NCBI GenBank assembly: GCA_050273025.1 | Contig: CP158635.1 | Coordinates: 1,240,001-1,304,000 of the forward strand | DNA: 64,000 nucleotides | Source of the DNA: Cenococcum geophilum | Taxonomy: Eukaryota | Direction of reading: 5' to 3' | Shown here: positions 31,936-60,319 of the stretch, in pieces | Position numbering within the stretch: the first letter of the stretch is position 1 | Layout: the number at the start of each line of letters is the position of its first letter | Notes under the pieces: model-generated | What the model saw: the letters and a program-made list of their open reading frames with translations, nothing else | Told to the model about the DNA's origin: nothing | Database searches by the model: none | Translations under genes and position numbers: made by a program

Positions 31936-33817
31936 TCTCCCCCTGAGCTTCGTTCTGCAGAGCTCTCGCAAAGCTCCACAGCTCTACGCAGAGGGCTGGC
32001 GGCGTGGGCGTTGGTGTTTACTGCGCGGCTTGGCGGTGCAGAGGTGGAATTAGGGCCTCTACGGCGACGAATTCCTCTTAACGTCGCGCGTGTATAAGGA
32101 GCTAAAGATCTCATAACTTATAGAGTAGGCTTTTCTCTATAATTTGGTGTAATTTTTATATTGGCAGGTTTTGTGGGAGGGTAAATTAATTTCGTTAAAG
32201 TTAATGAGGTCTTCTCATATAAACCGTGTTTAGGTTTCTACAAAGCTCGCCAAAGTGCCTCAGACCAAGAAAACGATTACCGTCCTAAATCAGCTTAGCG
32301 GACGGTGCGGATATTCCTATATCCGTAATCGATTTCTTGGTCTGGGCTTCTGAGGTAAGATTGACTCCATACTAACAGAATCACGTCTAAGTTTGCTAAG
32401 GTGAACGTCTAAGCTCGTTAAGGTAAATACAAATGTAACTGTAGATATACTATTGATATCGACGATTAATCTATATACGGCTAGTAGAAGGCTTAATTAA
32501 CACGCGCTTTCAACCATATATACTGGGGTAGTGTACGGAGGTCGCTAACATCTAAATTTGCACCTTCCTAATTAGGAAAATTGACTTACCGCCCACCGGC
32601 AGAATATGAATTTTAACGATAGACGCATTAAATTCGTTCCTAAAGCTTCAAATAAAAGGCAATATATAGATAATTGATTAATTAATTAATAAACTAGCTA
32701 TTTGGAAGGTGACGGCGACTGCGCGGGCGCAGCTTCCTGCCCTGCGACGACTCCGCTGAGGCCTCTACTGCTTAGGCGGAGGCCTCTACTGCTTGAGCGG
32801 AGTCCTCTGCGCCCTCGATTTGAGGCCTTAATTCTGCCTTCTTGGCAAGCTTTTGTATAGAGTCTTGGTGTTAAATGTATTCTAGAGGACGCTCTGCAGG
32901 ACGCTCTGCTTGGCGCAGACTGCCAGCAGAGCTACCAGCAAAGCCTTCCGCAGAGTCTCTAGAGCCTCCAGCAGAGCTACCAGCAGAGCCTGCCGCAGAG
33001 CTACCTGTCAGCCAGGCAGGTATCACGAATGACATATAGCTAGCTGATTGATATAGAGACACAGAATTGAACGATTGATCTGTTTTATTTAAGGTGGCTC
33101 CAAGAGCCCTAATATATATAATAGAATTGACCCCCTATAGGGGTCCCTAGAGGGTGGTGTAATAAGACGATATTAGGCTAATACTAATATCTAACAGCCG
33201 TCGTCACAGGTCAATATTACCCATAGGTAAAGCTACCTCCGTGGCCAACACACCCCCTTAGATCTGGCGTAGAGCGGCAGAGCTGGATTACTGGATTAGG
33301 TAGTCGTGATAGACGAGCTAGTAGTAAGCTTTGCTAAGCGTTAATTAACTAGATGTCTAATATCGCGGAGCCCTACCACGTCGACGAATTTTTAATGATT
33401 TTGCTTTAATAGAGCTTTAGTTAGTCCATCTGCAACTATCTCGCTTATCGGTACCCATTATACAACAAAGCTTCCATTTTAGACTTTTTGGCGAAGCCAA
33501 AATTAATACTAGCGTCTATATATTGCTTGGCAGCATCTACCTCAGCAACGCACAATGCTGAGACCTCCTGCAATATTCGCGAATATCGAACGCAGTCACT
33601 ACGTGGCTAATTCGCTTTTAATATCGCTAAACTTATTAATATTCATTATATATCTATCATCCATTCGTTTAAGAATTATTTTATAACGCTATTACCGCTT
33701 ATGACCAACTAGGAGATTTGTACGCGTGTATAATCCTAATAAGCAAACCCACCTGGACGACCTACCTTAACTACACTATCGTCTATAACCGCTATACCCT
33801 CCTTTACTAGTTCTATA

Positions 33818-40700: not shown

Positions 40701-43504
40701 TTTGTAGGTCCATTTTAAGCTAGCATATATAGCGTTGATTGCTTAATAATACCTCTGTTAAGCTAGATAAGGTTCTTTACCCTGGCGCCTATACCTTACT
40801 CCTTATCTATATACCAAATGCGGATACCTTAAGCATTAAATTTCTTCATAAATGCTATTATTAATTTAAAGAGTGGGAGCAGTATCTTTTGCTTATAGTT
40901 CTTAATAGGAAAGGCACGGTGGTACTTTATATAGTTATACCAAAAATGAGCTATATACGTGTCTCTATTGAACCCATCTTGTTCTATAATAATATTAAAG
41001 TAAACACGTTTAAAAGGGTAAGTTCTCTTTATAGATATTCTGCGAGATATCTGCTGTGTTATCTTTCTAAGAATATATGGTTTATAAAGTGGTACACTAT
41101 ATAAAGTTCTTTCTCTGTCCGTCTTAACCACTTTAACCCCATCTGCCGCAGTCGGCAGATAATCCACTAACTCTATATTATAGTGTAGTAAGCGTTAATG
41201 CCATACTTTGTTATATGCTAAGGTCTCGAAGAATCTAGTGGATGTAGCGTAGGTAGTAGGAGTAGGTGGTAAGGTGGCAATGGTATTAATAAGGTAGAGA
41301 CCTCTGTATTTTATAATGTTGGTAAATAGGCTTCCGTTATCTTTATAGCGTAGATGGTTTATAGATTAGTTAATAATTACTCTAACCCTGTAGAGCTTTA
41401 CTGCGGATATTAGATTAGTATAAAAATAGGGAGTATATGCTACGTTCCTTAATGTCAGATACCGAGTTAGGCGTTATTTTCCCACCTTAATTGCTAAGTT
41501 GATATTACTATATCCATAAATTTCTGCCCTAGAATCTCTAGCTGTTGCTATGGATATGCTTAGCTTAAAGTTATGGAAGTATTTAATATTGTTATAGAAG
41601 TGGGTGTCTGCCATAGTGTTATACCCCTAGGCATTAATTAAAGACAGATCCGGATGATCCTGCGATAATGTTAATAATGAAAAGGATGTTGTTATAGCTG
41701 CCGCTGTAGCTTGGGGCCTGTCTAGATCCTTAACCTTTTTAGCAGTAGACGAAGCTGATATAGACGTCCTTAATTTAGGACCTTCCTTCTTAATCTACTT
41801 AAGTCTTTTATTATAGTACTGCTTGTTTATTAGGACCTTAAGCCATTCTTAATACTTCCTTAAATACTTATTATTTAGTATAAAGTGCGGACCTTAAAGA
41901 GACTAAAACAGTTGCTTGTAATTCCTTAACTTATAGGGTAAACCATAAGTAAAACACTTTATCTCAGATAATTAAGAAGGTGCTAGGCTAGTAGACGTTG
42001 TTAGATCTGTAGATGGCTGCCCTAAGAGTATAGCGTAAGCGTTATATCTAGTATTTGGGTGCTTATAGAGGAGGTTAAATTCCTTAATTATTATTGCTAT
42101 TTTAAGCTTTTCTAACCTCTTCGCTACCTTTTAAATAAAGGCATAATATAGAGCTAGATAGATCTCCTTATAGTCCTAAACAAAGGCTTATATAACGCTG
42201 CTCTCTGTTGCCTCTATTAACCCTTCCTCTAGCTCTTCGCCGTTTTGTATAATGGTGATATAAAGCTAAAGCTATAACTTTAGTGTCTGGCGTTTAGGCC
42301 TTTATTTCCGTTTCTTAAGATCGTCCAATACTATTTGCTATAGCGTAGCTTAAGATAGCTTTGCTACCTTCTTTAACTGTCTTAGAACTAAATATGGTAT
42401 AGTAAGGTTTTTGAGATACCCTAAGAAGTTGGTGCCTATGGTGGTATGCAAGAGTGCTGCAAACGTATGGAGCTTCTCTTCCCGCTTTAGGTAGTTCTGT
42501 TATTAGAGCTTATAGAGCTTAAAGAGCATTCTTTATATCTTTAGAGATTGCTAAGTTTATTGTCCTTAACTTAATAACCTAGGTGTAGCTGTTCTAGTAG
42601 ATGCTGGAGTTGCTACTAGATTTGCAGGAGCCGCTGCTTGTGCTGCAGGAGCTGCAGGATTCGCTGCTGGTGCTGTAGGATCTGTAGGTGCTGCTGTAGG
42701 TGCTGTAGGAGCTGCTGTTATTGAAGGTATGGCTAGCTTATTATTTTCTTTAATTTTATTCTCCGTCTTATCTGGGTTAATATAGTCCTAGATCTTTGCA
42801 AAACTTGCTTCTTGGCGGATAAATTAAAACTATATAGGCTAGTCTTTCTAGGTTAGCAAAAGAGGGTTTGTAGAGTCCTTAGTTGCTATAGTGGCTTTTA
42901 TTTTAAGGTTGCGTAAAGAGACGCGCTTACGCGTAAAGCACGCGATATTTCGTGACGAACTATGCTTAAAGAGGCTTAGTGGTAGTCGTCTGGCCACTGA
43001 GATCTCCTTAGTGCTTAGAAGGTTACCGGGCTTATAACTGTTAGCTAGGTAGGTATCACGAATGATATATAGCTAGCTGATTGATATAGAGACACAGAAT
43101 TGAACGATTAATCTGTTTTATTTAAGGTGGCTCTAAGAGCCCTAATATATATAATAGAATTGACCCCCTACAGGGGTCCCTAGAGGGTGGTGTAACAAGA
43201 CGATATTAGGCTAATACTGATGTCTGATAGCTGTCGTCATAGGTCAATATTACCTATAGGTAAAGCTACCTCCGTGGCCAATACTACCTATAGAGCCTTC
43301 CGCGGGGCTACCTGTAGAGCCTCTAGAGCCTCCAGTAGAGCCTTCCGTAGAACCTCCAGAGCTTCCAGCAGAGCCTTCCGCAGGGCTTCCGCCTTGACCC
43401 TTCTTTGCCCACTTTATAGATTGGTTAATTGTAACCCATTGAATATCCGCTGCCTTATAGTGTTAATTGTTGTGCCCATTTAAACCCTGCTGCTGCCCCT
43501 GCTG

Positions 43505-43539
<35 letters not shown>

Positions 43540-45661
43540 TAGTGTGAGGCTCTACAAAGCTAACTTTGAACGTCAGCTTTGTCGAGTTTCTTCCCTTTGT
43601 ATTCGGCCGATTTTGGATTAATTAAGGAGCAGGAGGAGGAGGAGGATTAACGGGTAGTAGAGCCTTAGGAGGAGCCTTGCGGGAGGAAGTCTTTAAGCTA
43701 GTAAGCGGTTTAAGTAGTGCCTATTTAGGTCGACGTTGTCGCCGAATCTTTAGATCTTAATCGTCTTGCAGAGGCTCTAAGTTAACGAATTTGTGTAGTA
43801 GATAAGGACCTATCTATATAAGCGGTGGAAGCTTTAGCGGCTAAGGCTTTAAAAGCGTCTACTTATTCCAATTAAGCCTATTTAGCTTAATAAGCACCTA
43901 CTGCTATATATAAGCAATAACCTAATAACAATAACGATCCTGCCTTTTTAACGCCTTTTAGTCTCGGGTATAATTAGCTGCTCCCTCGCAATATTTATTA
44001 CCTCCTCTATAGCGGATAACCTCTTATATATAATATGGAATTCGCTTTATCTAAGCCTAAATTCGCCACTGCTTAAGCTCCTCCCACGCCTTCCGCTATG
44101 CTTGTTTAGCTTCTACGCGGGTTTATAGTGCTCCCTTTTATATAGTAACTCGCTTTATATAATTCTAGTAAGGCTTAATTATATTTAAATTGGGTAAATT
44201 ACTAGGCCAGAATAATCGCTAAATATTTACTACGTTAAAGTAGATCTACTAGCGCTTTAATGTATAAGGTATAGCTTTATCCTCTTATATAACTATATCT
44301 AGGCGATTAATTTAGCACTTAATTGTAAATAGAATAAGTTTTAGAAGAAGGATATTTATAAGATAGCGGTACCAATTAATGCCTCCCTTCTTACTATTCC
44401 GCTAAAAAGTACTTATATCCTTAGTAAGGCGGAACAATAGCTTTCTTCCTAGCTTATTTTTAAGGCCTAGTTAACTTATACTAGTAGTAAGCGCCTACGC
44501 CTAACAAAGCTCTGGCTTAATTGCGTTATTAATTTTCTAAAGGTCCTTCTTTACCGCCTTCTTTTCCGCTATAGTCTCCTTCTTCCATATATAGTAAGGA
44601 CCCTTTTAATTATATAAGAAGTAGCCCTAGAATATAAACTTAGAGGCCTTCTACTAGCGAGGTTAAATAGACTATTTATTAACCTTTTCTTTAGCTAAAC
44701 GCTAGAGCCTATATTTACCTCTTCTATAGCCTAGAATAACGCCTATCTTATTACTCTAAATAACGGCCTTCTAATCCTTAATTGTCTAATTCCAATATTA
44801 TAAAGCGAATTAATAGTGAGCTTCCTTTATAGCTAGTATAAGGCTGGGCTTTTATATAGGCTTAGTCTTGCGATATTTATAACGCTAAAGAACTCGCTAG
44901 ACTGTTTAAGTAGAGTAGCCGCATTTGGCAGCAATATAGGCGCAGGACTTCTCTCTACTATATTAATCGGAGGTAACCTTCTTAAGGATTCGCTGCTCAA
45001 ATTCGCGTATATATTTGGTTTTTCTGCTAGGATAAGAAGCGTTAATAACGTAGCCGTTAATTATAAGAGGATTTATAGTAGGATTCCAGCCGTAATTAAT
45101 AGCTTTTTAGAATAAATACTAAAGGCCTTAACGTTTAATTTTAGTAATATTTTTGATTTAATTTAAGATAGCTTCTATAGCCTTTATAGCTAGGGTATTA
45201 TGGACGCTTTAAGTACGATATTACGATTACTTGGAGAGGAATCGGAAGAAGCTAATTGGTTGATTTAAGCACGGTCCAGGATGGAGCCGATAGAGCCATA
45301 TAACGAGGAATGGTAACTAAGGTCATATAATATGCTACGTATTAAACAAGAGGAACGAGAGGAACTTACGTACCTTATATATAAGACGTACATCACGTAT
45401 AAGAAGGATTTTATAGGAGTACGGTTGTGTATTTAAGGACCCTTAGTCCCTACCTAGATAGTTCCTTCCTTATAGTAATTCTCAGAATATATTTAGAGTT
45501 AATCTATTAGGCAACTACTCTACTAGTTATTATTGTTTATTAACTTTAATTCCTTTACCTACACACCTAGCCTAATAATAAGCCTATTATAGTACCTGCT
45601 ATAAGGTTCTGTTACATAATTACTACCTAGTTATAGTATTAAATATAGAAAGTTAAACAAT

Positions 45662-48640
45662 ATGCCACTAAAAGCAGCCACCATAACGCTATTAACGGCG
45701 GCAACTACTTTAAGGTTAGGTGACACTAGTATAGTAAATACTAACTTACAGTAACCTATGACGGTTGGATAACTATAAGAGGTAATTAACCAGCTAACAG
45801 CTAATAATGTAGCGTTGGAAGAAAGGGTTAATGGGATTAAAGCAGTAAAGGTTAAGTTACTATCTATTAAGAGATTCTTAGGAGAAAGGTTAAAGCTTAA
45901 AGGATTTCTTATATAAATACACTTTAAAGTTTTATAGAAAGGGGTAAAGCTACTAACACCTATGGATCGAATAGCCTATACAGGACTATTCTTATTAGGA
46001 AGAGCACTAAAGTGGTTTAAATCTTACCTTACAGAGATACAAATAAACAGAATAACGACTACTAACTAAGATATACGATTTATATTCTTAAGCTAGGAAG
46101 GGTTTGCGGAGCGACTTACGCAAATATTTAAAGACCTAGAATTAATAACTACGGTGGAAAGGAAACTCTAAGACATTACGTAATAAACTTTAGTAATTAA
46201 GTATATAATATAGTTCCAAACGTTAGCGACATAAGTAGAGTGGAATAATAGGGCGCTTATGGCATAGTATAAGTAAGGACTTAAGGCTAAAGTCTAGGAT
46301 ATAATTATCCTAATAGAAGATACGGACACCCTAAGGGAACTAATAGATTAAGTGATTAAGATTAATAATTGGATCTACTAAAGGGAATAGACTAAGAGAG
46401 GTTAGGATAGAGTTCTATAGTTATATAAGGCGTAGAGTACGCAATAATAAAAGCTAAGTTAGAAACTATAGTATAGCGCAGAGCTAATGGACCTAAGTAG
46501 TACTAAAGAAGCCTATAAGAGATAGAGCAAAAAACTATAAAAACCTAAAGGTTAAGGATTTAGTAATTATAGGACTAAGGAGCAGAGGCTAAACTAGGGA
46601 TTTTAGTAACAGAAGACGTTTAGGCGGACTCTATAGTAAAGTTAATAGTTTAAAGACGGAGCTTATATAAATTGCAGGAAATAGGGTTATTTCGCAAGGG
46701 ATTATAAAGATAGTTAGAGTTACTATATAATAAAGGGAACTAGACTAATAGTAGAAGATATATACGTATAGAGGGATAATAGTGTACTGCGAGGAATAAA
46801 AGAATATTTAATTAGAAGTTTTGCGTTTTGTTATAATAACGCATACCAAATTTATAAAGACGCTAAGTACGGCGTAAGCTATTAGCTATAGGAGCTAAAA
46901 TCTATAGAGTATAGAGGAACCAATAAACCAGTTCGTAGATTAGATATTAAGGACGATAAATTTAATAAAGGCGAAACATTTTGTAACAATAAGGTAATAA
47001 GAGTAGCTTACTAGGAGCATGCGGACCTCCAAGATATTATACTAAAGGTAGAGGATAATTCCACTACAGAATAGGGAATATTAGTAGGGATTAAGACCCT
47101 ACTAGACACGATATCTATTGCTTTGCGAGATATAAGAGAAATAGGATAGCGAACTACTTTAGCACTCAATAAAGGCAAGAAGCTAAAGGCTTAAGATTCT
47201 TAAGATAAGATAAGAGACGACCAAGATTCTTAAAATGAGATAAGGTATACCTAAGGATCTATAATAGACGAAAACCAATAGAGTAGGGCAGTAGCTTAGT
47301 TTAAAGATATACGAATAAGCTTAGGATAGAGTTTCCTACAGGTATAGGACTCTTAAGACGAGATAAGCGAGATTTAAGACTCTTAAGACGAGATGAGAAT
47401 ACTAAGTAAGCCTAGTTAGACTAAGGTAGGAGTAAGGCTTAAGTTAAAAGCAAGCTTAGGATTAAGAATCCTATAGAACTAAGACTTTAATATATAAATA
47501 AGGACTATTAAAAAGATTAGAGAATCTATAATATAAACGGTAACTAGACTAGGAGACAGATATATAGACCTAGAGGACTTACTAGGGGAATATAGTGTTC
47601 GGCCTAAAGATCGAAAAGTTAATACTAAGATTAAGAAGTAAGACGACTTTAAAGATCTAAGTGTAAGACGCAAACTAAAAGAAACTATAAAAGAATTTAG
47701 ACGAAGAATTATCGTATAGTAGGAGTAGAAACTAGATAAGAGATTTAGTATATTAGGACGTATAAGGGATAGAGCGCTAGTACGAAGAATTACTAATAGG
47801 CCTAGAGCAGGCATACTAAGAGCTAAGTGGCTTACTAAACTAGAAAACGAAGAGGATTTAGGGATTTTAACTAGGTTTAAGGAACGATATATAAAGGGCT
47901 GTTATAATGCAGTAATAAGAAGATACTTTCTTACGGATAAACCATATATACTCTAGCAGCTGTACTAAAAGTGGTATAGGCAAAGGCATAATAATAAGTA
48001 GGAAGATTTCTATATGTAGTTAGATAAAAAAGTTATCTAAAACCACCTAATTACGGAGAAGGCTATAAGTTATATTAAAGGAGCCTTAATTATAATATTA
48101 AAAGATCTAGAAAAGCGTTTAGAGGACTAGAGAAGTAAAAGACGTATTTTAATACCTGCAAATAAAGATATAACGTTTAGATTAATATGGTAGAGGTTTA
48201 AACTTAAGGATAAAGACAAGCCGAGAGTTAACCTAAGACACTAAGTACATTATACGCTATTATGGATCGTATATGTAGATAATATATACAATATACATAA
48301 AGCACTAAAAGATAAGCACTATAAGTATCCTATAAGAATGTATTGGATAATAGATAAGCAAAAGTATAGGAATACTAAGTATATATATAGTTAGTATCTA
48401 GTAGAAGTTTAGGAGTTAGGAGACTTAATACTTTAACTAGGAAGATTCCTTACGGAAGAATACCTAGATAAATAATAGTAGTGGGAATGCCTAGAGAATA
48501 TGTGTCTATAGTATATTAAAGATAAAAAGCAAACTAAGTATTGGCCTAAGTTAGACCAAGTATAAATAGGATTAAGTAGCTAATAGTTAGGAAAAGTAGA
48601 GGCCTATAGGACTAAAGGGAGCTAGTAATAGAGCCTTAGA
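45662..48640 (+). pseudogene. Gypsy-3 extended gag (capsid, CCHC knuckle, extra Cys/His motifs)
   Basis: ATG at 45662; LGRALKWF..YL; (C).NC.K.G(H)FARD(C) at ~46664-46704; ~1.9 kb of further coding-like sequence before the protease. Confidence 0.75.
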
Positions 48641-51199
48641 CCCTTAAAAGAATTTAAGGATAATACCTAAATTTATAAGTTAAGTAGCAAGATTAACAGT
48701 TTAAGGCATTAATAGATAGTGGAGTAATAAGGAACTATATCTCGCTAATAGCAGTTAAAAGGATGGGATTACCTTACAGACAAAAAGAGGAATCTTACCT
48801 ATTAGTAATAATTTTAGGAGATCCAATAGCCTATAGAGGAGGGATTATTAATCTTAAAACAGGACCTATTTAGCTAACTATTAAAGGGAGATAAATTAAG
48901 ATGTCTTTTAATATATTACTATTAGGGAATAATAAGGCAGTACTAGGAATGCCTTAGTTATAAGAATATAATTTAAGAATCGATTGAGTTATAGGTTAAG
49001 TTAATATTAGGGATACTTAACGCCGCAAGATATAATAACAAGCTAAGATAGTATAGTACTAAGTAGGAGCGACCTATAAAGAAATAGAAAAAGGACTAAG
49101 TTACGTACTAAAAAGATACCATAAGTACGGCAAGAAACTATAGTTACTAGAAAGTAAAAAGCTATTAGAGTATATAGTATAGGACTATAAGATAAAATTA
49201 AAACTAGAAATAAGTCTAAGGTTCTTTCTAATCTATAAGCTTACTAAAGAGAAAGGTAGAGCATTAAAAGAGTTTATCTAAGAAAATTTATAAAAGGGAT
49301 ACATTAGACCATTGTAGTTATTAGCGGGTTATCTAATACTATTTATACTAAAGAAAAATGGCAAGCTAAGGCTATATATCGACTATAAATAGTTAAACAG
49401 TATCACTAGGAAGAATAGGTATCCTTTACCCTTAATTAGCAAAATTTAAGATAGGATAGGCAATGTATAAATCTTTACAAAGATAGATTTAAGATAGGTA
49501 TACCATTAGATTAGAATTAAGGAAGGCGATAAATAGAAGGCAGCCTTTAGGTTAAAGGAAGGACTATATAAACTATTAGTTATACAATTTAGGTTTATAA
49601 ACGCACTAGCAACGTTCTAAAAGCGTATTAATAATATATTAGGAGAATACTTAGATGAATTTATTATGGCATACCTTAATAATATTATTATCTACTTAAT
49701 AACTAAGGAAGAATATAGGGAACACGTTAAATAGGTCTTAAAGAGACTATAAAAAGAATAGATGCTAGTAGTAATTAAGAAATACAAGTTCTTTACCAGG
49801 AAGACCAATTTCGTTAGATTTATTATTAAACTAGGCTAACTTAGTATAGATCTAAAAAAGATTAAGGCTATAGTAAATTAGCAGGAACTAGAGAATATTA
49901 CGCAGTTAAGATTATTTCTAGGATTTTGCAATTACTACAGAAGGTTTATAGCGCAATGGTTAAAGAATATTAAGCCATTTACGCGATTAATAAAGAAAGA
50001 AGAAATATGGGCATAGGGAGAGGAATAAAAGGAACTCTTTAAAAAAGTTAAAGAGTTGTTCACCTAGGAGCCAGTTTTTAAAATCTATTAACTAGGACTA
50101 GAAACGGTTATAGAAATAAACGCATTAGACTATATACTAGGGGCGTACTTTATATAGAAATATTAAAATAGATAGCACCTAGTAGCATACTATAGTCGGA
50201 AGATAACACTACTAGAGTTAAACTATAACATCTATAATAAGGAGTTATTGGGTATAGTTATAGCACTAAAGAAATAGAGAGTATTCTTATAAGGTATAGA
50301 GAAACTATTTATAGTTAAGATAGATTATAAGAACCTAATAGGATTCCTAATAATAAAGGAACTTAACTAAAGATAGGTTAGATGGGTAGAGATGCTTATA
50401 GAATACTATTTTAAGATTTAGTATATTAAGGGTATAGACAATACGCGAGCAGATATTTTAAGTTAAAAGGCTAAACTATAAAATAATAAGAAGCTATTAG
50501 GGGCTTTACTATAAAAAGATATAGACGGATTAATTAGATATAATTATCTAAAAATTATAATAACTTAAGAAGAGTTAGACAAAGTCTATAAGACGCTAAA
50601 AAGCTTTTAGGTATAAAGGATTTTAGAAGTATAACTAGAGGATCTATAGATGGATATATATAAAAATTAAGAAGTAATTGTTTGTACCAATTTAATGGTA
50701 CAAGTGAGTCGTGTCTAGGGGCACGAAATACGTATAGTATCGTATGCTTATTTAGACGGTGGTGACTGTCGATTGTATAAAGCAGACTACGTAGTCTATA
50801 TACTGATGCGCCTCCCCCCTGATTAGTTAGTGCTTCAGAAGTGCACCAGACGCGTAAGCGGGTGGTTGGTGCACCAAACGCGTAAACGCGTACTCGGCGT
50901 ACCGAGCGCGTAAGCACGCGGTTGGTACGACAGGTGCTATAATTATACACTGGCGGTACTTGGAAAATGAAACCACTTATGTATAGCCTCCGTAATTGTC
51001 TTAATAGAACCATAAAACACATAAGAAAATACATAGGAAATCCCTCCTGAGGTGCCTTCTGGGTTGCCTTCCAAATAGTGCTCCAAGCTGGCCGTAAGTC
51101 CTGCTTACGGTCCGTAAAATAAACTGTACGGCCTTTTAACGGGCCGTAAATGCACCGTACGGCCTTCCGACGGGCCGTGGCTGAACCATAAATGCTCCG

Positions 51200-54100
51200 T
51201 TAGTCTCGCTCTACCCATTCTGTGACCTTTAGGTTAAGCTTATTCGTGTCGATTAGGGTTTTAAGAGCTTAACACGGCTTTGCCTTAGTTATGGCGTCTG
51301 CTAGGTTGTCTCCGCTGCTGATCCATTTGACCTCCGTAATCTCACGTTATTTATAGGCCTGACGTAAGTACATTAGGTCGACCATAAGCCTCTTCTCTTG
51401 TGTCGTACCTAGTTTAACTAGGCAGTCGTAAAGGGACTTTAAATCGGTGTATAAAACCAGGGGTAACTGCTCCAGTTATAGAATCTTCTAGACCGTTGAT
51501 TTAATTGCGGCTGCTATATTAAATCTATAAGCTAGTGCATATAGTTCAGAAGCTAGTATACTACGGGTTACTCGTTTACACTTAATTGAAGACTAGTGCA
51601 GTATATTTGCGTCCTGATTGCGGTCCGTAAGTATAATTACAAAGCCGATTTGTGATGATAGGTCTTTATTATTAGCAAAGGAGGCGTCCGTAAATGCCAG
51701 TAAGCTAAGGGAACTTAGGTCTAGTGGTACAAAAATAAGTCCCCTTGCTGCATTGTCAATTTGCCACTGAATGCGCTTATTAAGCTGCTTAATATTTTCT
51801 TCTTGCGGATTTACTGCCTGGGCCGCAAAGGATAAGTCGTAGGCAGATTCGGGTTAGCAGACTGTGGCAATGTAGGCGCCTCTTGCACGCTGTGCAGCGT
51901 ATTGGTCCTTTGTATTTACGGTCTTACGGGTCTCTCCGCAGGAACTGGTAAGGTCCGTAGGCTTTACTATAACGAGCTTTAGGTTTTAAGCTTGGCGTTT
52001 TTGGGTTAGCTAAATTAAGTTGCCCTTTTGTGTAATTAAGCCTCCGTTGAACTTAATTGGAGTCTACTTAGTTAACTGCTCTCGCGGCTTTGCCAGGAAC
52101 TTAGCTTCTTACAGTTTAGTCTTTTTAGCGTCCGCAAATGTCCGGTCTGCTAAGAAGAGGGTATTGTCTGTTTGGAGTCCAACAATACTAAGGCCGTTTA
52201 ATGGGCTGTATAGGAGGCAGGGGTCGTAGGTCGACTGTTCCATTTTAAGTTTACTGACGTGGTGCTAGTGGTATGTCTTAAACTAATGGTTTCCGGCTTC
52301 TGGTACTCCGTAAAGAGGTTTTACGACCCGTAAAATTGTTCCTGGTTGTAGGTTAAGCTCATAGGGTGGTCGTATAAAGATATCCCTGCTTAGGTAGGTA
52401 TTAGACTGCACGTAGGCTTGTAAGATATCCCGTAAGTAAAGGGCTACGGATTTAGTTTGCTGTAGTCCAGGCATAAGTGCGAGTATAATCCGTTGACTGA
52501 CCCGTTGAATTGTAGGCGATTGCGTAAGGACTAGGTCCTTTTCCTGGTCGTTATAAGCTTATACAACGAGCCTTAATTTCTTAAAGGCTTTGTTAATACT
52601 AGGGTGCTTAATCTCGTCAATAAAGCGTAAGTTAAATATACAGACGCCTTGCGGAACGTCTCTCTCCGTTACGATCGCAAAGACACCCTTTTTAAGTAGT
52701 CCGTTGATCTCTTTACGCCGTGAGTCCGTAAAAGGGGTTTCCTGTACTAGAACTGATATATCCACAGGCGGAGATTGCTTTGCGAATGTGCCTGCGGAGG
52801 TTAGGTGGTTCTCCGTTACGGGATTCTTACGGGGGCGTCCTCGGCCACGCTTTACGGCAGGTTTAGTAGGTTTAGTGGGTTTTTGGGGGACCTCTAGGGT
52901 AGGCAAGGGTGCCTCCAGTTTATCTGATTCGGCAGTCGTTTCTAGTTTGTTTGGTTCGGCGGTTGCTTCTAGTTCGTCTGGCTTAACGTTATGGGTGTTT
53001 TTGGACCGAAAATAGGGTTTTACGGACGTGCTTCTAAAGCTTATTGGTCCGCTAGGGAGCTATACATAGCAGGTCTCGTCTTCTACGGCTAGTAGACGGT
53101 AAGGTCCAGTCCAATTGCCGCTTTCCCGCCACACGAGGACTTTAGAGTTAAGCGGGAGGTTGTGTACTGGGGTCGTATTAGGTCCGTTGCGGTGGTGCAG
53201 AGCGTTATTAACAGTTTGTTTGGCCCGTAATTTGACTATTTCGGCTATTGCCTTCCGTATTATAGCTGCTCGATCCATAACGGACGGGGTAGGAGGGTCC
53301 AGTTTGCTCATCCTTGGGTAGGCTCTGTAGACTAAGAGGGTAGGTACCAGTCCGTCAGGGCCAGCGGTATCGTTAACGGCTTTTACGGCCATCTGTAAAG
53401 CCAGTTCTTTTTAGATATTCTTACACTCGTCCGTAATAATCTGGTAAGCTCTCCGTAAAGCTAGGTAAGCTCGCTTAACAAGTTTAATGGACTAGTGCGC
53501 CTCAACTAGAACGGCTTTTGTTGAAATAGCCATGGCCGTAGCGTACTGTTGGAATTCCTTACTAATAAAGTTCCTACTAGCGTCGTGGGTGATATACTTA
53601 GGGGGTCCAAGGTATGTGTTAATTTAGCAGGTCCATAAAATGTCCCAAGTATGTTTTGCGGATATATTTTACAACTAACAGGCGGCTTGGTAGCGGGTTG
53701 CCTTGTTAATTATGTGTAATACTAGGCTGCCGTTAATATACATAATGTCTACGTACACTAAGTGGTTAAAGTCAAGGTCCTTATAAAGGGTGAACTTGAA
53801 TCGGCCTGGGGAACGTCCGTATTTCTGGCAAAAGGAGCAGTATTTGGTCAGGTAATCAACTGCCTTTCTGTCGACGTCGTTATGTCCAGAGCGTTTAAGG
53901 ACTCTATATAGCTTTTCGGCTGACGGGTGGCCGAAACAGCGGTGCAGACGGTGGATCTCCGTACTGGTAAGGTAGCACGGGTTATAGTCGAAAGATTCCT
54001 AAATATAGGTCCGTAAAGTCTCTCCTTATATAAGGAACGGGTGTCCAAATCGTCGTATAATTAGCAGGGTAACATACTTGCTTCCTAGGGCAGTTGCGGG

Positions 54101-56239
54101 GCCGATTAAGGTGTCCGTAATATTATTGTAGTAAACCTATAACCTGTCTATGTCCGTAAGGCAAAGTAAGAAAGGGGTGTCCGCTTTTACTATATAGAAG
54201 TCAACTAGGCCAATTAGGGTCTTAACTACGACTAATCCAATTAATGCGGTTAAACCAATGCCAAATTAGACGTTTACGGCCCCAGCTTGCATAGTGTTAA
54301 TGTCCGTATTATTATTTACGGTAGTCTTATATGCAAGGTATTGTCCGTAACCTACAGTAGACTTCTTAGAGGCACCTGTATCGATCATAACGCCATAGAA
54401 TTCTTTGGGGGTATAGCGTTCTGTAGTAATATATACAAATAGGTCCTGTTCGCGGTCTATAACGTCCGTAACGGGTCCAATGGGTGTACTTACGGGCCAG
54501 TTTTCGGGTGTAATTGAGTGTATAAAGGAGCGGTCAGCTAATACGGTTATAGTATTAAAGGCTTAACTGTCCGTAAAAGGTCTAAAAGTAGTTAGGAATG
54601 TCTCTAAGGTCTCCTGTTCCTAAGCGTCTGAGTTAAAGTCAATTATAAGGGCTTCTATTAACTCGTTAGGGGGCTCCTTTGCTTCCTCTCCTTTATATTC
54701 CAAAATGAACTGGTTAATCCGGTTATTAAGTCTCTTCCTAGACTTGTTACGTTCTTCCTGGGTATGCTTTATAGACCAATATCCTTCCTTGCCGCACACG
54801 AAGCACTTCTAGCTAGTTCGTTTGCGTAGATATGCTTTTATACGGGGGTTGCTACGGGGGTTATGGGTGGGGTTTGGTCGGTACGGGTACTGCTGGCGGT
54901 AGCGGCGGTCCGTAAAATAGGCTTCTAAGTCTGTTTGCGGATATTAAATATCCGTAGCGAAGGCTTAAGTGCTGCTTAGTGGGTTTGAGACTTCGTACGT
55001 TACAATAGAGGAGCGTAGGTCATTAATAAGGCCAGTTAAGGTGTCTGCAGGCTTGTAACAGGCGTACTTACAGGGCTCTACTTCCTGGCAAGCCGTAATA
55101 AGTTTATTGTGCAGGAAGTCGTCTATTTAAAGCTTGGCATTAAGGCCGTGCTGTAGGTGCCGGAGGTCTTTAATAAGGATTTGCAGACACTCTATAGTCG
55201 ATTTTTCGGTGTTCTTGTCGATTACGGTCCGTAGCTTAGTCGCATTCCATTGGGTAAGGATATCATGCCTATATTCCGGTCCTTTAAAGTAGTTACGGGT
55301 AGCTTCGCATAGCTTATTAAAGGGGACACCAAGGGGGTTGCTCTTAAGGTTGGTATAGTAGTAGTTAAGTGCTAGGCCGCGTAGTATGGTAGAGTAGGCT
55401 TGGCTGAACTCTTGTTTAGGAATGTCAGCCTTCTAACAGAGGTCCGTAAAAATGGTCAGTTTAAAGTCAAAGTTGTCGTTTTCACCGCTGTACTTAGATT
55501 CGTCGGTATAGAGCTTAGCCAGGTTGGCTAGTTCCTTGCCATAGGTCTTTACTTAGATAGGTTGCGGGTCTATGGCTTGCGGATCTATAGCTTACGGATA
55601 TATAGCTTACGGATCTGTAGCTTGCGGATATATGGCTTGCGGATCTATAGCTTGCGGACATATAGTTTGCGGATCTATAGCTTAAGCAGCGGAAGTATTT
55701 TGGTCCGTATTTTGGTTTACAGGGGTATTGCAGTCCGTAACTTGGGTACTAGGTATGCTCTGGCCCGTAAGATCAATTCTAAAGGCGTTTGGGTCTATAG
55801 GACGAATTTGGTTAAGTGGGTTAGGTATAAGGCTAGCGATTACATTAAGTTTGGAAGAAGCAAAGAGTTCCTTAGTAGTATTAAACTGGTCTAGGATTTC
55901 TTCCTTAGTCCATTCCGTTTGGTCCTCCTTATATATTACATTATATAAAGACCGTGCAACAGTAACGTGTTTGTCTTTTTCAACCCATACGCCGTGGTTA
56001 CGGAGGAGGGTTCGTAGGTTACGGATGGTCATAAGGCTGCAGGCCTTAAAAGTAGCTTCCGTAAAGTCCGCAAAGTCTTCCTTATATTGCTCCCATATGT
56101 CATTGTTCGTAGGCTTAAAGTATCCGTATTTAAGGAGTTTAAATTGAATATAGTCGTTGACGTCGTTCGTAGACGTAAGGTCGACTCCTTAACTCCACTT
56201 CTTTTGACCTTCGCTGACTTGCTTGCTGATATCTGCTAT
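51200..56239 (-). pseudogene. Copia-3 gag-pol polyprotein
   Basis: KCFVCGKEG knuckle, MIDTGAS protease, HRCFGHP integrase, TQSPTIQR RT and RNase H motifs; same clade as Copia-1. Confidence 0.9.
55556..55683. repeat. 15-bp tandem repeat, about 8 copies, inside Copia-3 gag (PQA[I/T][D/Y] on the minus strand)
   Basis: ggatctatagcttgc units directly visible. Confidence 0.85.
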
Positions 56240-58259
56240 ACTGTGTAGTATTATACGTAGCGGGTAGAAGGGTCTTGTAGTGGTCCGTAAAGGCGGATAA
56301 TGGGTCCGTAAGGGTTTATAGGAGGGTAGGGGGTTTCTATAAGGGCTTGTAACGGTCCGTAAAGGTAATTAACGGGTCCGTAGCGGTTCGTAGAAGGGTA
56401 AGGGGTCTCCGTAAGGGGTCTGGGGGAGGTATAGTAAGGATAGGGGTTCGAGGTTCGAGGGTAGGGGGTTCCTGTACAGGTCTGTATTCGCGTCTATTAT
56501 ACTTCTGGTAAACCGTACTAAGACTTGAATAAGTATATAGAGTTAGTGATAGGTCCGTAATCCCCAACTTCCGACCTTCTAGCAGGTCGTACTAGGATAT
56601 GAACGGGTGGTCGCTGTCGAGTATCGCTCGGGGGGAGGTGTCGAGTGATTGCTGATCTGTGCGCGCTTACTGATTAGTGTTTGTACCAATTTAATGGTAC
56701 AAGTGAGTCGTGTCTAGGGGCACGAAATACGTATAGTATCGTATGCTCATTTAGACGGTGGTGACTGTCGATTGTATGAAGCAGACTACGTAGTCTATAT
56801 ACTGATGCGCCTCCCCCCTGATTAGTCAGTGCTTCAGAAGTGCACCAGACGCGTAAGCGGGTGGTTGGTGCACTAAACGCGTAAACGCGTACTCGGCGTA
56901 CCGAGCGCGTAAGCACGCGGTTGGTATGACAGGTGCTGTAATTATACAGTAATATATATCCTAAAAAACATAGTAGAGTAATTTATGGAAGATTTCTATA
57001 AGGGAATAACTTAAGGATATAACGGAGCTATAGGCTTAGTGTTAAGACTCTAGGAGGAGTATATTATTAACAGAATCTAGGGACTAGTATAAAAAGTTAT
57101 AAAAAAATATCTAGATTATTAAAGGAATAAACTAATAAGATATAAGCTATATGGAGGGCTATAACCTATTAAAATATTAAAGAGATTATAGGAAGTTATA
57201 TTATAGGACTTTATTATTAAGTTACTAAAGTTAAGAGATCCTATTACTGGATAAGATTATAACGCGATTTTAGTAATAGTAGATAAGCTTATAAAGTGGG
57301 GATACTTTATAGCGTGTACAGAAGAAATATTAGTAGAAGATATTACTAAAATCTATATTAAAGAAGTATTCGCAAGATATAGAGCACTAAGTAAAATTAT
57401 ATTAGATAGGGATTTAAGATTTATAGTAGTATTCTAGAAGGTATTCTTAGCGGAGTAAGGAGTTAGAGTAGTAACTTTTACCATATATTATCCGCAGACA
57501 GACGGTTAAATGGAAAGATTAAATTAGACACTAGAGCAATATTTAAGGCACTATATTAATTATGTATAGAACAATTAGGTATCGTTATTACTAATTATAT
57601 AGTTTATATATAATATAACACCATAGAAAGGAATAGGCATATTACTATTTAAGGCAAATTATGGATACGAGTTAAGAATATCGTTATCGCTATAATAAGT
57701 AAAGAAGATAAGTAGCATAGCTAAGTAGAGAATAGAGACACTAATAAATCTTTATAAGAACCTTATGGAAACAGTAAAAATAGTATAAAAGAGAATAAAA
57801 AAGTACTATAATGCTAAGAGATCTAAGGGACTAGATCTTAAGGAGGGAGATAAAGTATAGCTACTATATAAAAATTTTAAGAGTTAACAACTAAGTAAGA
57901 AGTTAAACTACGTTAGACTAGGACCTTTTAAAATTAAGTAAAGGATTTTACTGGTTACGTTTAAGTTAAACCTACTAGCTAAAATAAAAATCTACCCTAT
58001 ATAGTATATCGCAATACTAGAGTTAGCGTATAGGAATATTAAGCTATTAATCTATAAAGCAGACATGTATAGAGGATAAGAGGAAGACAAATAGCAAGTT
58101 TTAAAGATTGTTAACTATAAGAATATTAATAATAAAATATAGTATAAAGTAAAGTAGATAGGCTATACTAAGACTACCTAAAAGCTACTAGAGAATTTAA
58201 AAAACGCTATAGAAAAGGTATAGGAGTATCGGAAGAGATTAGGTTAGGTAATATTAATA

Positions 58260-58858
58260 AAAAAAGATCGCTAAAAAATAAGTCACCTAAGGGGGACCTA
58301 AGAAGAGCAGTTGCCGAGCTACTTAGATCTATTTCCTTCTTAATTAAAGGAGAATCTATTCTTTTATTACTAAGTTCCTATAGACCCTATTTTATAAGTT
58401 TTTACTCCTTAAAACGGACCTTTTTATAAACCTTCTTAAGATGGAGTAAATGAGTAGACGCCGCGATGCAAGTATCTAGGGCCTTCTGTTCCGCATCTTA
58501 AGAACATTCTAACTTAATAAGGGCTTAAGATAGTTTACTATCTAGCCGCGTAGTAGTAGATTAAATATAAGACCCTAAGACGAATTAATTAGGGAACCAG
58601 ACGACTATTTAGAGTAATAGGTCGCGTATATTTAGTATTAGAAGTAGAGCGAACGTCATAGGACAAACGAATATTCGCTTTAGTGCACTTTAAGTAAGAG
58701 GACGATTGTCGCGAAGATGGATTCGCTAACGCAATATAAACTAACCCCTTTTTTAAACAGCGAGAATATGGAGATAGTATGATCTTACTAAAAGATAATA
58801 TTATAGTAACAGTGCGAGCACGACGTTGGGCGTATAAAGAAGAAATTGCTTTAGGTAT
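58260..58858 (-). pseudogene. Antisense accessory ORF of Gypsy-3: Zn2Cys6-like domain plus coiled coil
   Basis: Reads IPKAISS..PYSRCLKKGLVYIALANPSSRQSSSYLKCTKANIRLSY. Restoring TAY>TGY gives C-x2-C-x6-C-x13-C-x2-C-x8-C. Confidence 0.7.
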
Positions 58859-60319
58859 AATAAGTAATAATATTAACCAAATTAATTAGACGGATATTAT
58901 ACCTCTAATAAATAACTTAGAGATATTTTAAATCTTTAAGGATAAAGATAAAAAGGAGGAAGATAGTGTTATGGACGCTTTAAGTATAATATTATAATTA
59001 CTTAGAGAGGAATTAAAAGATGCTAGTTAGTTAATTTAAGTACGGTTTAGAATAGAGCTAATAGAGCTATGTAATAAGGAATAGTAACTAAGGTTATATA
59101 ATGTGCTATATATTAAATAAGAGAAACGAGAGGAACTTACGTACCTTATATATAAGACGTATATTATATATAAGAAGGATTTTATAGGAGTATAGTTATA
59201 TATTTAAGGACCCTTAATCCCTACCTAGATATTTCTTTCCTTATAGTAATTCTTAGAATATAATTAGAGTTAATCTATTGGGCAACCACTCCACCAGTTG
59301 TTATTATTTGTTGACTTTAATTCCTTTACCTACACACCTAGCCTAATAACGAGCCTATCGTAGTACCTACTATAAGGTTCCGTTATATAGGGCCTAGGCC
59401 CTAGTCGCGATCTAATAAAAGACCATATTATTAAAGCTTTAGAGGAGCTATAGACTATCGTTTATATAATTATGCGATTTTAGTAGCGCTGGTGTTAGTG
59501 TAATAAAGGAGTTAAGGCTACAGATAAATTCTGCCAGTTCTATTTTTGGGCGGTCAGAGTGCGGTAAGTCAATTTTCCTAATTAGGAAGGTGTAAATTTA
59601 GATGTTAGCGACCTCTATAGAGCTAAGCCGTCTTACATGAGTTAAGGCCCCACAAATCGCTTAAAACCGGCCCATAAAGAACGTTTAAAAGAACGTCCAA
59701 AAGACCCCAAATCTTGATGGTCGTTCGGTTCCGATCTGAAGGCCCTAGATTTAGTTCAGAATACGTTAATTCGAAGTGATTTTAAATGCACAGCCTCGAA
59801 GTTTTAATTTTCCTCTCACCGCTCGTAAAACGCCAGAATTATACGCTAAAAAGTTGGCAACTTTACCGTATAAGGCTTCTGAACTGAAGGTCTTGGCGTC
59901 AATTTAAAAAAGTGCCTAGAGCTCCTTTTTTATTTAAATTCTAAAGCCTTTAGATTTTATACGCCTGTGCTTTTATAAAGCCATAAACGCGTACTAAATT
60001 AGGAAGGAATGCGTTTTTTTCTACTAGGCTTTTAGTTTAGATCTAATCTAAAGTTTTATAACCAAATAAGCCCTTACCCAATGGAATTCCTATAATGAGG
60101 GTAATACAACACATTTATTTTATATAGTTAAAGACCTTCCAGAATGAGGCAATTTATTTAAAATTTAGACATTATTTTTTTAAGGACGATTTGTTCTAAA
60201 ATAAGGCATAAATAATCTAGAACGAGTCGTGTTCTAGTATTAAGGCTTATTTAGTAACCATTTTTGGCTAGGTTAGATCGGCTAGGTAGGTGTTAATAGT
60301 AGGCGCTAAAGTAGAAGTA

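Follow-up and report, generated by a model that had tools for sequence, protein, structure and literature searches.

An antisense gene with a Gal4-like cysteine pattern between pol and the 3′ LTR of a RIP-degraded chromoviral Ty3/Gypsy element

Annotations of fungal Gypsy elements list gag and pol only. In the 64,000-nucleotide stretch of the Cenococcum geophilum genome analysed here (contig CP158635.1; hereafter, the window), one such element raises the question of whether a further gene is encoded opposite the end of pol and, if so, what its product would do. A preliminary description of the locus had noted a stop-free minus-strand frame between the chromodomain and the polypurine tract, whose tyrosine codons lie where RIP would have altered the cysteines of a Zn2Cys6 (Gal4-type) cluster, and had proposed a DNA-binding regulator transcribed antisense from the 3′ LTR. 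We compared this frame with its sister copies, with intact relatives and with known zinc-cluster proteins.

Host element and layout of the antisense gene

The source genome comprises 178 Mb in seven contigs. The host has the makeup of a chromoviral Ty3/Gypsy element, namely an LTR pair, a TAGGG duplication, a polypurine tract, and an integrase followed by a chromodomain-like motif. Its relevant parts, and those of the antisense gene in the window copy, are as follows.

45196–59387, plus strand: host Ty3/Gypsy LTR retrotransposon, RIP-degraded, with the 5-bp target-site duplication TAGGG on both sides
45196–45616, plus strand: 5′ LTR, 421 nt; 59 differences separate it from the 3′ LTR, and 56 are transitions
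57000–58250, plus strand: pol tail, with integrase region, Tf2-type SH3 and chromodomain-like end (3′ boundary provisional)
58207–58574, minus strand: exon 2, a long coiled-coil-type helix and then an acidic/hydrophobic Pro-rich tail; six internal stops in the window copy
58575–58629, minus strand: intron, 55 nt, phase 1; donor AT in the window, acceptor AG; branch point 58592–58588 or 58588–58584
58630–58858, minus strand: exon 1, with start position, N-terminal helix and six-cysteine cluster; 51% identical to the intact relative P0152 over 67 residues
58658–58768, minus strand: cysteine cluster C-x2-C-x6-C-x13-C-x2-C-x8-C, within exon 1; the window copy has Cys at positions 2 and 5 and Tyr at 1, 3, 4 and 6
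58942–58966, plus strand: polypurine tract adjoining the 3′ LTR, read from the sequence
58967–59387, plus strand: 3′ LTR, 421 nt, the presumed site of an antisense promoter

The pol tail matched PF24626 (SH3_Tf2-1) with an E value of 1e-4, which is under the cut-off, and the same search returned no Pfam match for its chromodomain-like end. The motif at the end of pol was judged chromodomain-like by eye in less-mutated loci. From 58221 to past 58410, codons that are stops in the pol frame read as sense in other copies. RIP marks are evident over the feature region, with TpA/ApT at about 1.5 and (CpA+TpG)/(ApC+GpT) at about 0.45. A second LTR element (50679–56948; LTRs of 271 nt, 98% identical; duplication GTAAT) is nested in the host pol; by composition, it is opposite in orientation to the host, and it is much younger. 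A contig from one RNA run (X3) omits 55 nt in the chromodomain-like region (58093–58147), the ends of which form no clean intron on either strand. Outside the element, 59561–59615 matches 32538–32592 in inverted orientation (55 nt, 98% identity).

On the minus strand, the frame described as stop-free from 58858 is in fact open from 58885 to 58594. The six codons of interest read TAT (58768), TGT (58759), TAT (58738), TAC (58696), TGC (58687) and TAT (58660), with a spacing of 2-6-13-2-8. The complete gene consists of exon 1 (58858–58630), an intron (58629–58575) and exon 2, which ends at the stop 58209–58207, giving 198 codons in all; its start position lies 109 nt from the 3′ LTR, with the LTR on the upstream side. 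A short intron had been suspected here, and its 3′ end was placed correctly; its full extent of 55 nt emerged only now. The span first described had also stopped at 58260. Exon 2 of the window, translated, aligns with the intact relative P0170 at 35% identity over 104 residues, reaching the last residues. The gene continues past 58260 to its stop at 58207 and overlaps the end of pol.

How often would such a pattern be met in this DNA? Allowing Cys or Tyr at each position, the stop-free Zn2Cys6 spacing occurred three times in the 127,996 codons of the six frames of the window, and the other two occurrences both fall in a low-complexity stretch (42635–42707). The surrounding sequence (42560–42760) has Cys/Arg-rich and Ser/Tyr-rich frames, which yield false cysteine-spacing matches. 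The window copy itself is heavily damaged: the start codon now reads ATA, four cysteines and the splice donor are gone, and exon 2 is interrupted by the six stops listed above. This copy cannot make the protein.

Sister copies, intact relatives and constraint on the antisense frame

A first look across the genome with region 58150–58965 returned 3353 candidates, of which 40 were scored; all of these were near full length, at 89–100% identity. Between the first 30 copies and the window, 2392 of 2528 differences were transitions. RIP runs in one direction and produces transitions only. Across 64 distinct copies, Cys codons were found at the six positions in 19, 27, 6, 10, 51 and 17 copies, respectively (at 58696, five of the ten Cys copies had been chosen for that very codon, and 5 of 59 remain without them), and every non-Cys codon was TAT or TAC save a single TAG. 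Since RIP runs one way, the ancestral codons were Cys, as the preliminary description had supposed. The Cys/Tyr picture was the same in a further 30 loci retrieved with an intact relative as query. In our control, Cys/Tyr-variable codons were present in all three minus frames; this variability therefore demonstrates ancestral Cys codons only, and neither a gene nor a function.

Tyrosines kept in less-mutated copies would have told against a cysteine cluster, and the 64 copies did not bear that objection out. Among 87 distinct own-genome entries (one of which stands for five loci whose alignment stops short of exon 1), one copy, L168, keeps all six cysteines. The start codon is ATG in 11 of these 87 entries and the intron donor GT in 4, and none has a stop-free exon 2. 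An LTR lies inside the flank of all 91 own-genome loci. The 3′ LTR of the window contains CGG-N12-CCG at 59043–59060 (CGG in 58 and CCG in 48 of the 91 loci); the arrangement resembles a Zn2Cys6 inverted site, and shared descent accounts equally well for its presence. In two cases, a pair of gene-region copies lies within about 2 kb, the first pair head to head (L045 and L047, G000:C2:15964651-15967295; L146 and L153, G000:C5:499548-501183).

To find relatives, we built a profile from nine natural exon-1 translations, which retrieved 181 proteins. Among the 150 of these that were listed, the majority were RIP-marked and two kept the six cysteines. Intact relatives were reached by searching onward from the least damaged protein. 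Two of them, P0152 (152 aa) and P0170 (239 aa), keep the 2-6-13-2-8 spacing and run straight from the cluster into the helical region. The same spacing recurs in the intact P0061 and P0119 and in the own-genome copy L168; the distant P0264, 32% identical to P0152, has six cysteines spaced 2-6-8-2-6. Ten of the 277 proteins collected—known as protein records rather than from their source molecules—read through the junction with Trp, in the phase predicted for the phase-1 intron at 58629–58575.

Genomic context was gathered from the best 80 of 329 confirmed metagenome loci. Four assemblies supplied these loci, and identity to the window is 70–86% for the 79 that could be aligned; hence, they do not represent independent lineages. 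In 77 of the best 80, a pol tail follows on the opposite strand 332–483 nt downstream, and the remaining three are too short. The 55-nt intron is present in 68 of the 80 (donor GT in 15 and AT in 53; acceptor AG in 66); of the others, five have an intron of 127–130 nt at the same place, two have other gaps and five cover one exon only. The longer intron, at the position of the 55-nt one, marks a sister subfamily (L066, L067, L071, L108, L131). The ctaat sequence at 58592–58588, offered earlier as the branch point, is common among own-genome copies; CTRAY occurred within the last 30 nt of none of the 68 metagenome introns (best 80 of 329 loci), and 58588–58584 is an alternative.

Other searches returned less. 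A word-index search with a mutated 76-residue copy among longer proteins confirmed none of 26 candidates, and a scan of IMG/VR gave ten pattern matches, none confirmed. The best ESM Atlas hits (0.75 and 0.85) are unnamed clusters, the second from an ascomycete, and serve as leads only. The gene's relatives matched no named host protein in the protein searches.

Does the antisense frame bear the mark of selection? Transversion columns were counted per codon position, since RIP makes transitions only. For the exon 2 helix in own-genome copies, positions 1, 2 and 3 had 2/71, 1/71 and 12/71 such columns (p 0.0002); the counts for exon 1 (2, 1 and 1 of 76) are too few to judge. Among the best 80 of the 329 metagenome loci, the corresponding figures were 22, 13 and 33 of 76 in exon 1 (p 0.002) and 8/46, 5/47 and 17/47 in the cysteine domain (p 0.004), with a codon-position bias in the exon 2 helix as well (p 0.03) and none in the intron or the exon 2 tail. 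As the columns cannot be treated as independent events, these p values are rough. The position enriched in exon 2 does not coincide with third positions of pol codons. A third-position bias in the antisense frame, together with six cysteines kept at 32% identity, requires selection on the protein: as far as sequence comparison reaches, protein-level constraint acted on the antisense gene during the spread of the family.

Taken with the layout, the window gene is a RIP-killed version of a true accessory gene, one that belongs to a fungal lineage of chromoviral Ty3/Gypsy elements. The gene is encoded on the strand opposite to pol, in the interval from the chromodomain region to the polypurine tract; its intron is conserved, and its product is about 200 residues long. 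That the antisense gene is real we hold to be almost certain.

Resemblance to Zn2Cys6 proteins

The Zn2Cys6 consensus is C-x2-C-x6-C-x5-16-C-x2-C-x6-8-C, and the cysteines of the intact relatives and of L168 fall inside it, with two of the six surviving in the window. Zn_clus (PF00172) was the commonest Pfam family matched, by 13 of 28 members at E values up to 1 (best 0.0017), with the scores shown (8–18 bits) below the gathering cut-off of 21 bits. Except for P0170, the alignments shown match the first three cysteines to the second half of the profile, and neither the window frame nor copy L035 had a Zn_clus match in Pfam. Against solved structures, sequence searches placed Ppr1 first for P0152 (E 0.56) and found Put3 and Hap1 for P0264 (E 1–2); a profile of 28 sequences had six weak matches there, none of them a Zn2Cys6 protein. 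DUF3716 (PF12511) also gave a weak match, over nearly its full profile, to the cysteine domain of 6 of 28 members (best 17.4 bits, E 0.0043), short of its cut-off of 22 bits.

A first AlphaFold model from eight sequences had a pLDDT under 50 in the cysteine domain. The better model (mean 84; cysteine domain 62–74) has short helices at 35–39 and 59–63, one after each CxxC, and a single long helix at 77–151 with a pLDDT over 90; a helical segment behind the cluster had been noted in the preliminary description. All six Foldseek rows were Pho7 or Hap1 DNA complexes, each a weak match (E 4.6–8.7), and VIA comparison with these two proteins gave Z 2.7–2.8 and rmsd 9.4–9.5. A wide VIA search was filled by the long helix and its coiled-coil neighbours (best Z 7.5) and barely probed the cysteine domain.

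Asn299 of Pho7, four residues after Cys2 and equivalent to Lys18 of Gal4, reads the CGG triplet (PMC6265462). Among 50 relatives, this position is Gly in 31, as in the window, and Lys in 12, and the residue before it (Cys2+3) is Lys in 39. A base-reading Lys, His or Asn at Cys2+4 is thus missing from the window's subfamily and present in a sister group. In P0170, P0251 and P0247, the C-terminal 45 residues contain 6–7 acidic and 1–2 basic residues and 17–19 of F, L, P, M or W; activation domains are acidic and hydrophobic.

With Gal4, Ppr1, Put3, Hap1 and Pho7, then, the present protein has in common a cysteine spacing within the consensus and predicted helices after both CxxC motifs, and the long downstream helix and acidic tail are likewise found in Zn2Cys6 factors. 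It differs from them in the 13-residue loop between Cys3 and Cys4, in the Cys2–Cys3 loop (A/V-K/E-K/E-G/K-L-V), in its length of only about 200 residues, in being carried by a retrotransposon and in its Pfam score. Of the Gal4-type regulator first proposed, the spliced antisense gene, its six conserved cysteines and the long helix behind them have held up, and the family assignment is putative: Zn_clus stays below its cut-off and the fold matches are weak. The protein has the look of a Gal4-type factor, yet does not pass these tests. That its cysteines form the predicted binuclear zinc cluster is, in our judgement, probable.

Transcription, possible function and known counterparts

RNA data bear on the gene to a limited degree. 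In run X17, of which about 12% was read, 21 reads were placed; their depth covers the pol tail and exon 1 and has a single orientation throughout, which would mean antisense RNA provided that the library was stranded in the usual way. The reads stem from other copies or relatives, since none is 95% alike. No intron joint was seen in the four runs aligned, and a contig from run X1 crosses 58551–58997 unspliced. Sixteen of 24 listed runs contain 4–7% of the sequence words, which is not evidence by itself. A further lead comes from the read-through ahead of the spliced P0170. It matches the edge of LTR and polypurine tract at 58976–58929, weakly in the window (E 6) and more clearly in sister loci (E 0.0005–0.008), and over 58976–58840 on the minus strand it joins exon 1 about 22 codons early, bypassing the presumed start. 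This would fit a transcript from the 3′ LTR, although a single sequence is no more than a lead. Upstream in P0170, a second intron is possible, as is an isoform starting from the Met just before Cys1.

What might the protein do? Transcription may begin at an antisense promoter within the 3′ LTR, and since the genomic RNA has the opposite polarity, the intron would not be lost in retrotransposition. The six cysteines would hold two zinc ions in a Gal4-type binuclear cluster, the long helix would dimerise and the tail could recruit the host transcription machinery. Such a product would amount to a miniature trans-acting regulator whose most likely target is the LTR of the element that encodes it, and the DNA sequence that it recognises may not be the canonical CGG. 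We regard it as an even call whether the gene encodes such a protein—zinc cluster, coiled coil and acidic tail—as a putative DNA-binding regulator acting on the LTR. Rather tentative is the broader proposal of a widespread clade of ascomycete chromoviruses that are 'complex' retrotransposons, each with a spliced antisense, Gal4-derived trans-regulator of its LTR with altered specificity. Complex retroviruses encode regulatory proteins, and an element regulator would be their fungal counterpart. If this were true, thousands of LTRs per genome would be potential binding sites, and host genes could be rewired.

Four other accounts compete with an LTR regulator. In the first, the targets of the cluster and helix would be host proteins or chromatin instead of a specific DNA site, and the element would be protected against heterochromatin, RNAi or methylation. 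Most relatives lack the canonical base-reading residue, weak full-length matches point to DUF3716, a domain of two Zymoseptoria REP9 proteins (PMC8232023), and plant antisense extra ORFs are reported to be nuclear, with function unknown (PMC7264820). However, cluster, linker, long helix and acidic tail follow one another as they do in Gal4-type activators, Lys does occupy Cys2+4 in 12 and Cys2+3 in 39 of 50 relatives, and no sequenced own-genome copy escaped RIP, though RIP differs from the silencing that would have to be blocked; we consider such an anti-silencing or chromatin factor rather unlikely. A second account is a late role in the life cycle (particle assembly, nuclear import or integration targeting), in which the protein would pair with Gag or integrase through its coiled coil and the zinc site would be structural; roles of this sort have been suggested by analogy with retroviral accessory proteins (PMC7264820). 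In its favour, a single long helix makes up about half of the modelled protein and matches only generic coiled coils, and the gene goes with one pol lineage; yet the cysteine cluster is the best-conserved part, its sole structural neighbours are DNA-bound transcription factors, and an acidic hydrophobic tail would be unexpected, making this reading improbable.

The working part might also be the antisense RNA itself, acting over the end of pol through double-stranded RNA and self-limiting silencing, with the protein secondary. Exon 2 does overlap the pol tail, the X17 reads run in one direction across the pol tail and exon 1, and the idea has been raised for plant elements (PMC7264820). The third-position bias in the antisense frame and the cysteines kept at 32% identity speak for the protein, and although both roles can coexist, we think a primarily RNA-based function quite improbable. 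Finally, a piece of some host zinc-cluster gene, captured and carried along without function, or a chance product of RIP, could be suspected from the Cys/Tyr-variable codons in every minus frame, the lack of an intact own-genome copy among those examined and the failure to match any named host protein. Against this stand spliced intact relatives, the fixed phase of the intron, the fixed position, the codon-position bias and the rarity of the pattern within the window, by which this reading is already largely refuted; we give it hardly any credence. The combination of zinc cluster, coiled coil and acidic tail makes the function of antisense extra ORFs directly testable on one small natural protein, and such a gene would explain a class of orphan fungal 'hypothetical proteins', marking them as transposon genes.

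Extra genes in this place have been described before. The function of antisense extra ORFs of LTR retrotransposons is stated to be unknown (PMC7264820). In the literature searched, with subscription journals outside, we found no zinc-cluster label for such an antisense retrotransposon gene: zinc, Gal4 and antisense are absent from PMC3248453, and PMC9409477 and PMC2447501 hold nothing relevant on such a gene. The DUF3716 proteins REP9-1 and REP9-2 of the Zymoseptoria element REP9 (PMC8232023) are likewise transposon-borne; REP9, however, is a class II DNA transposon.

The closest precedent, cited in PMC8365987, PMC7264820, PMC4227169 and PMC5987419, is brtn of Botrytis Boty, an antisense extra gene between pol and the 3′ LTR (PMC7264820) whose host is a fungal Gypsy element bearing a chromodomain. 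The accessible parts of the accounts citing brtn ascribe no domain or function to it, and zinc is unmentioned in the available text of PMC8365987; the name BRTN appears on no protein match of the present gene. Compared by description only, the two share antisense orientation, a place between pol and the 3′ LTR and a chromodomain-bearing fungal Gypsy host. Brtn-type genes are defined by lying antisense, with pol on one side and the 3′ LTR on the other, in the majority of copies; here, the antisense place behind pol is seen in 77 of the best 80 of 329 metagenome loci, and the LTR is present in the flank of 91 of 91 own-genome loci. The location of such a gene is already known from brtn, and we did not find the zinc-cluster architecture in the literature searched. 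Further afield, the antisense ORFs of Grande (gene23), RIRE2, Retand and PvRetro13 belong to plant lineages and have no clear protein similarity, as far as the accessible account goes, save an SMC domain in one (PMC7264820); in position, orientation, presence in most copies and suspected regulation, they are nevertheless like the gene described here (PMC7264820).
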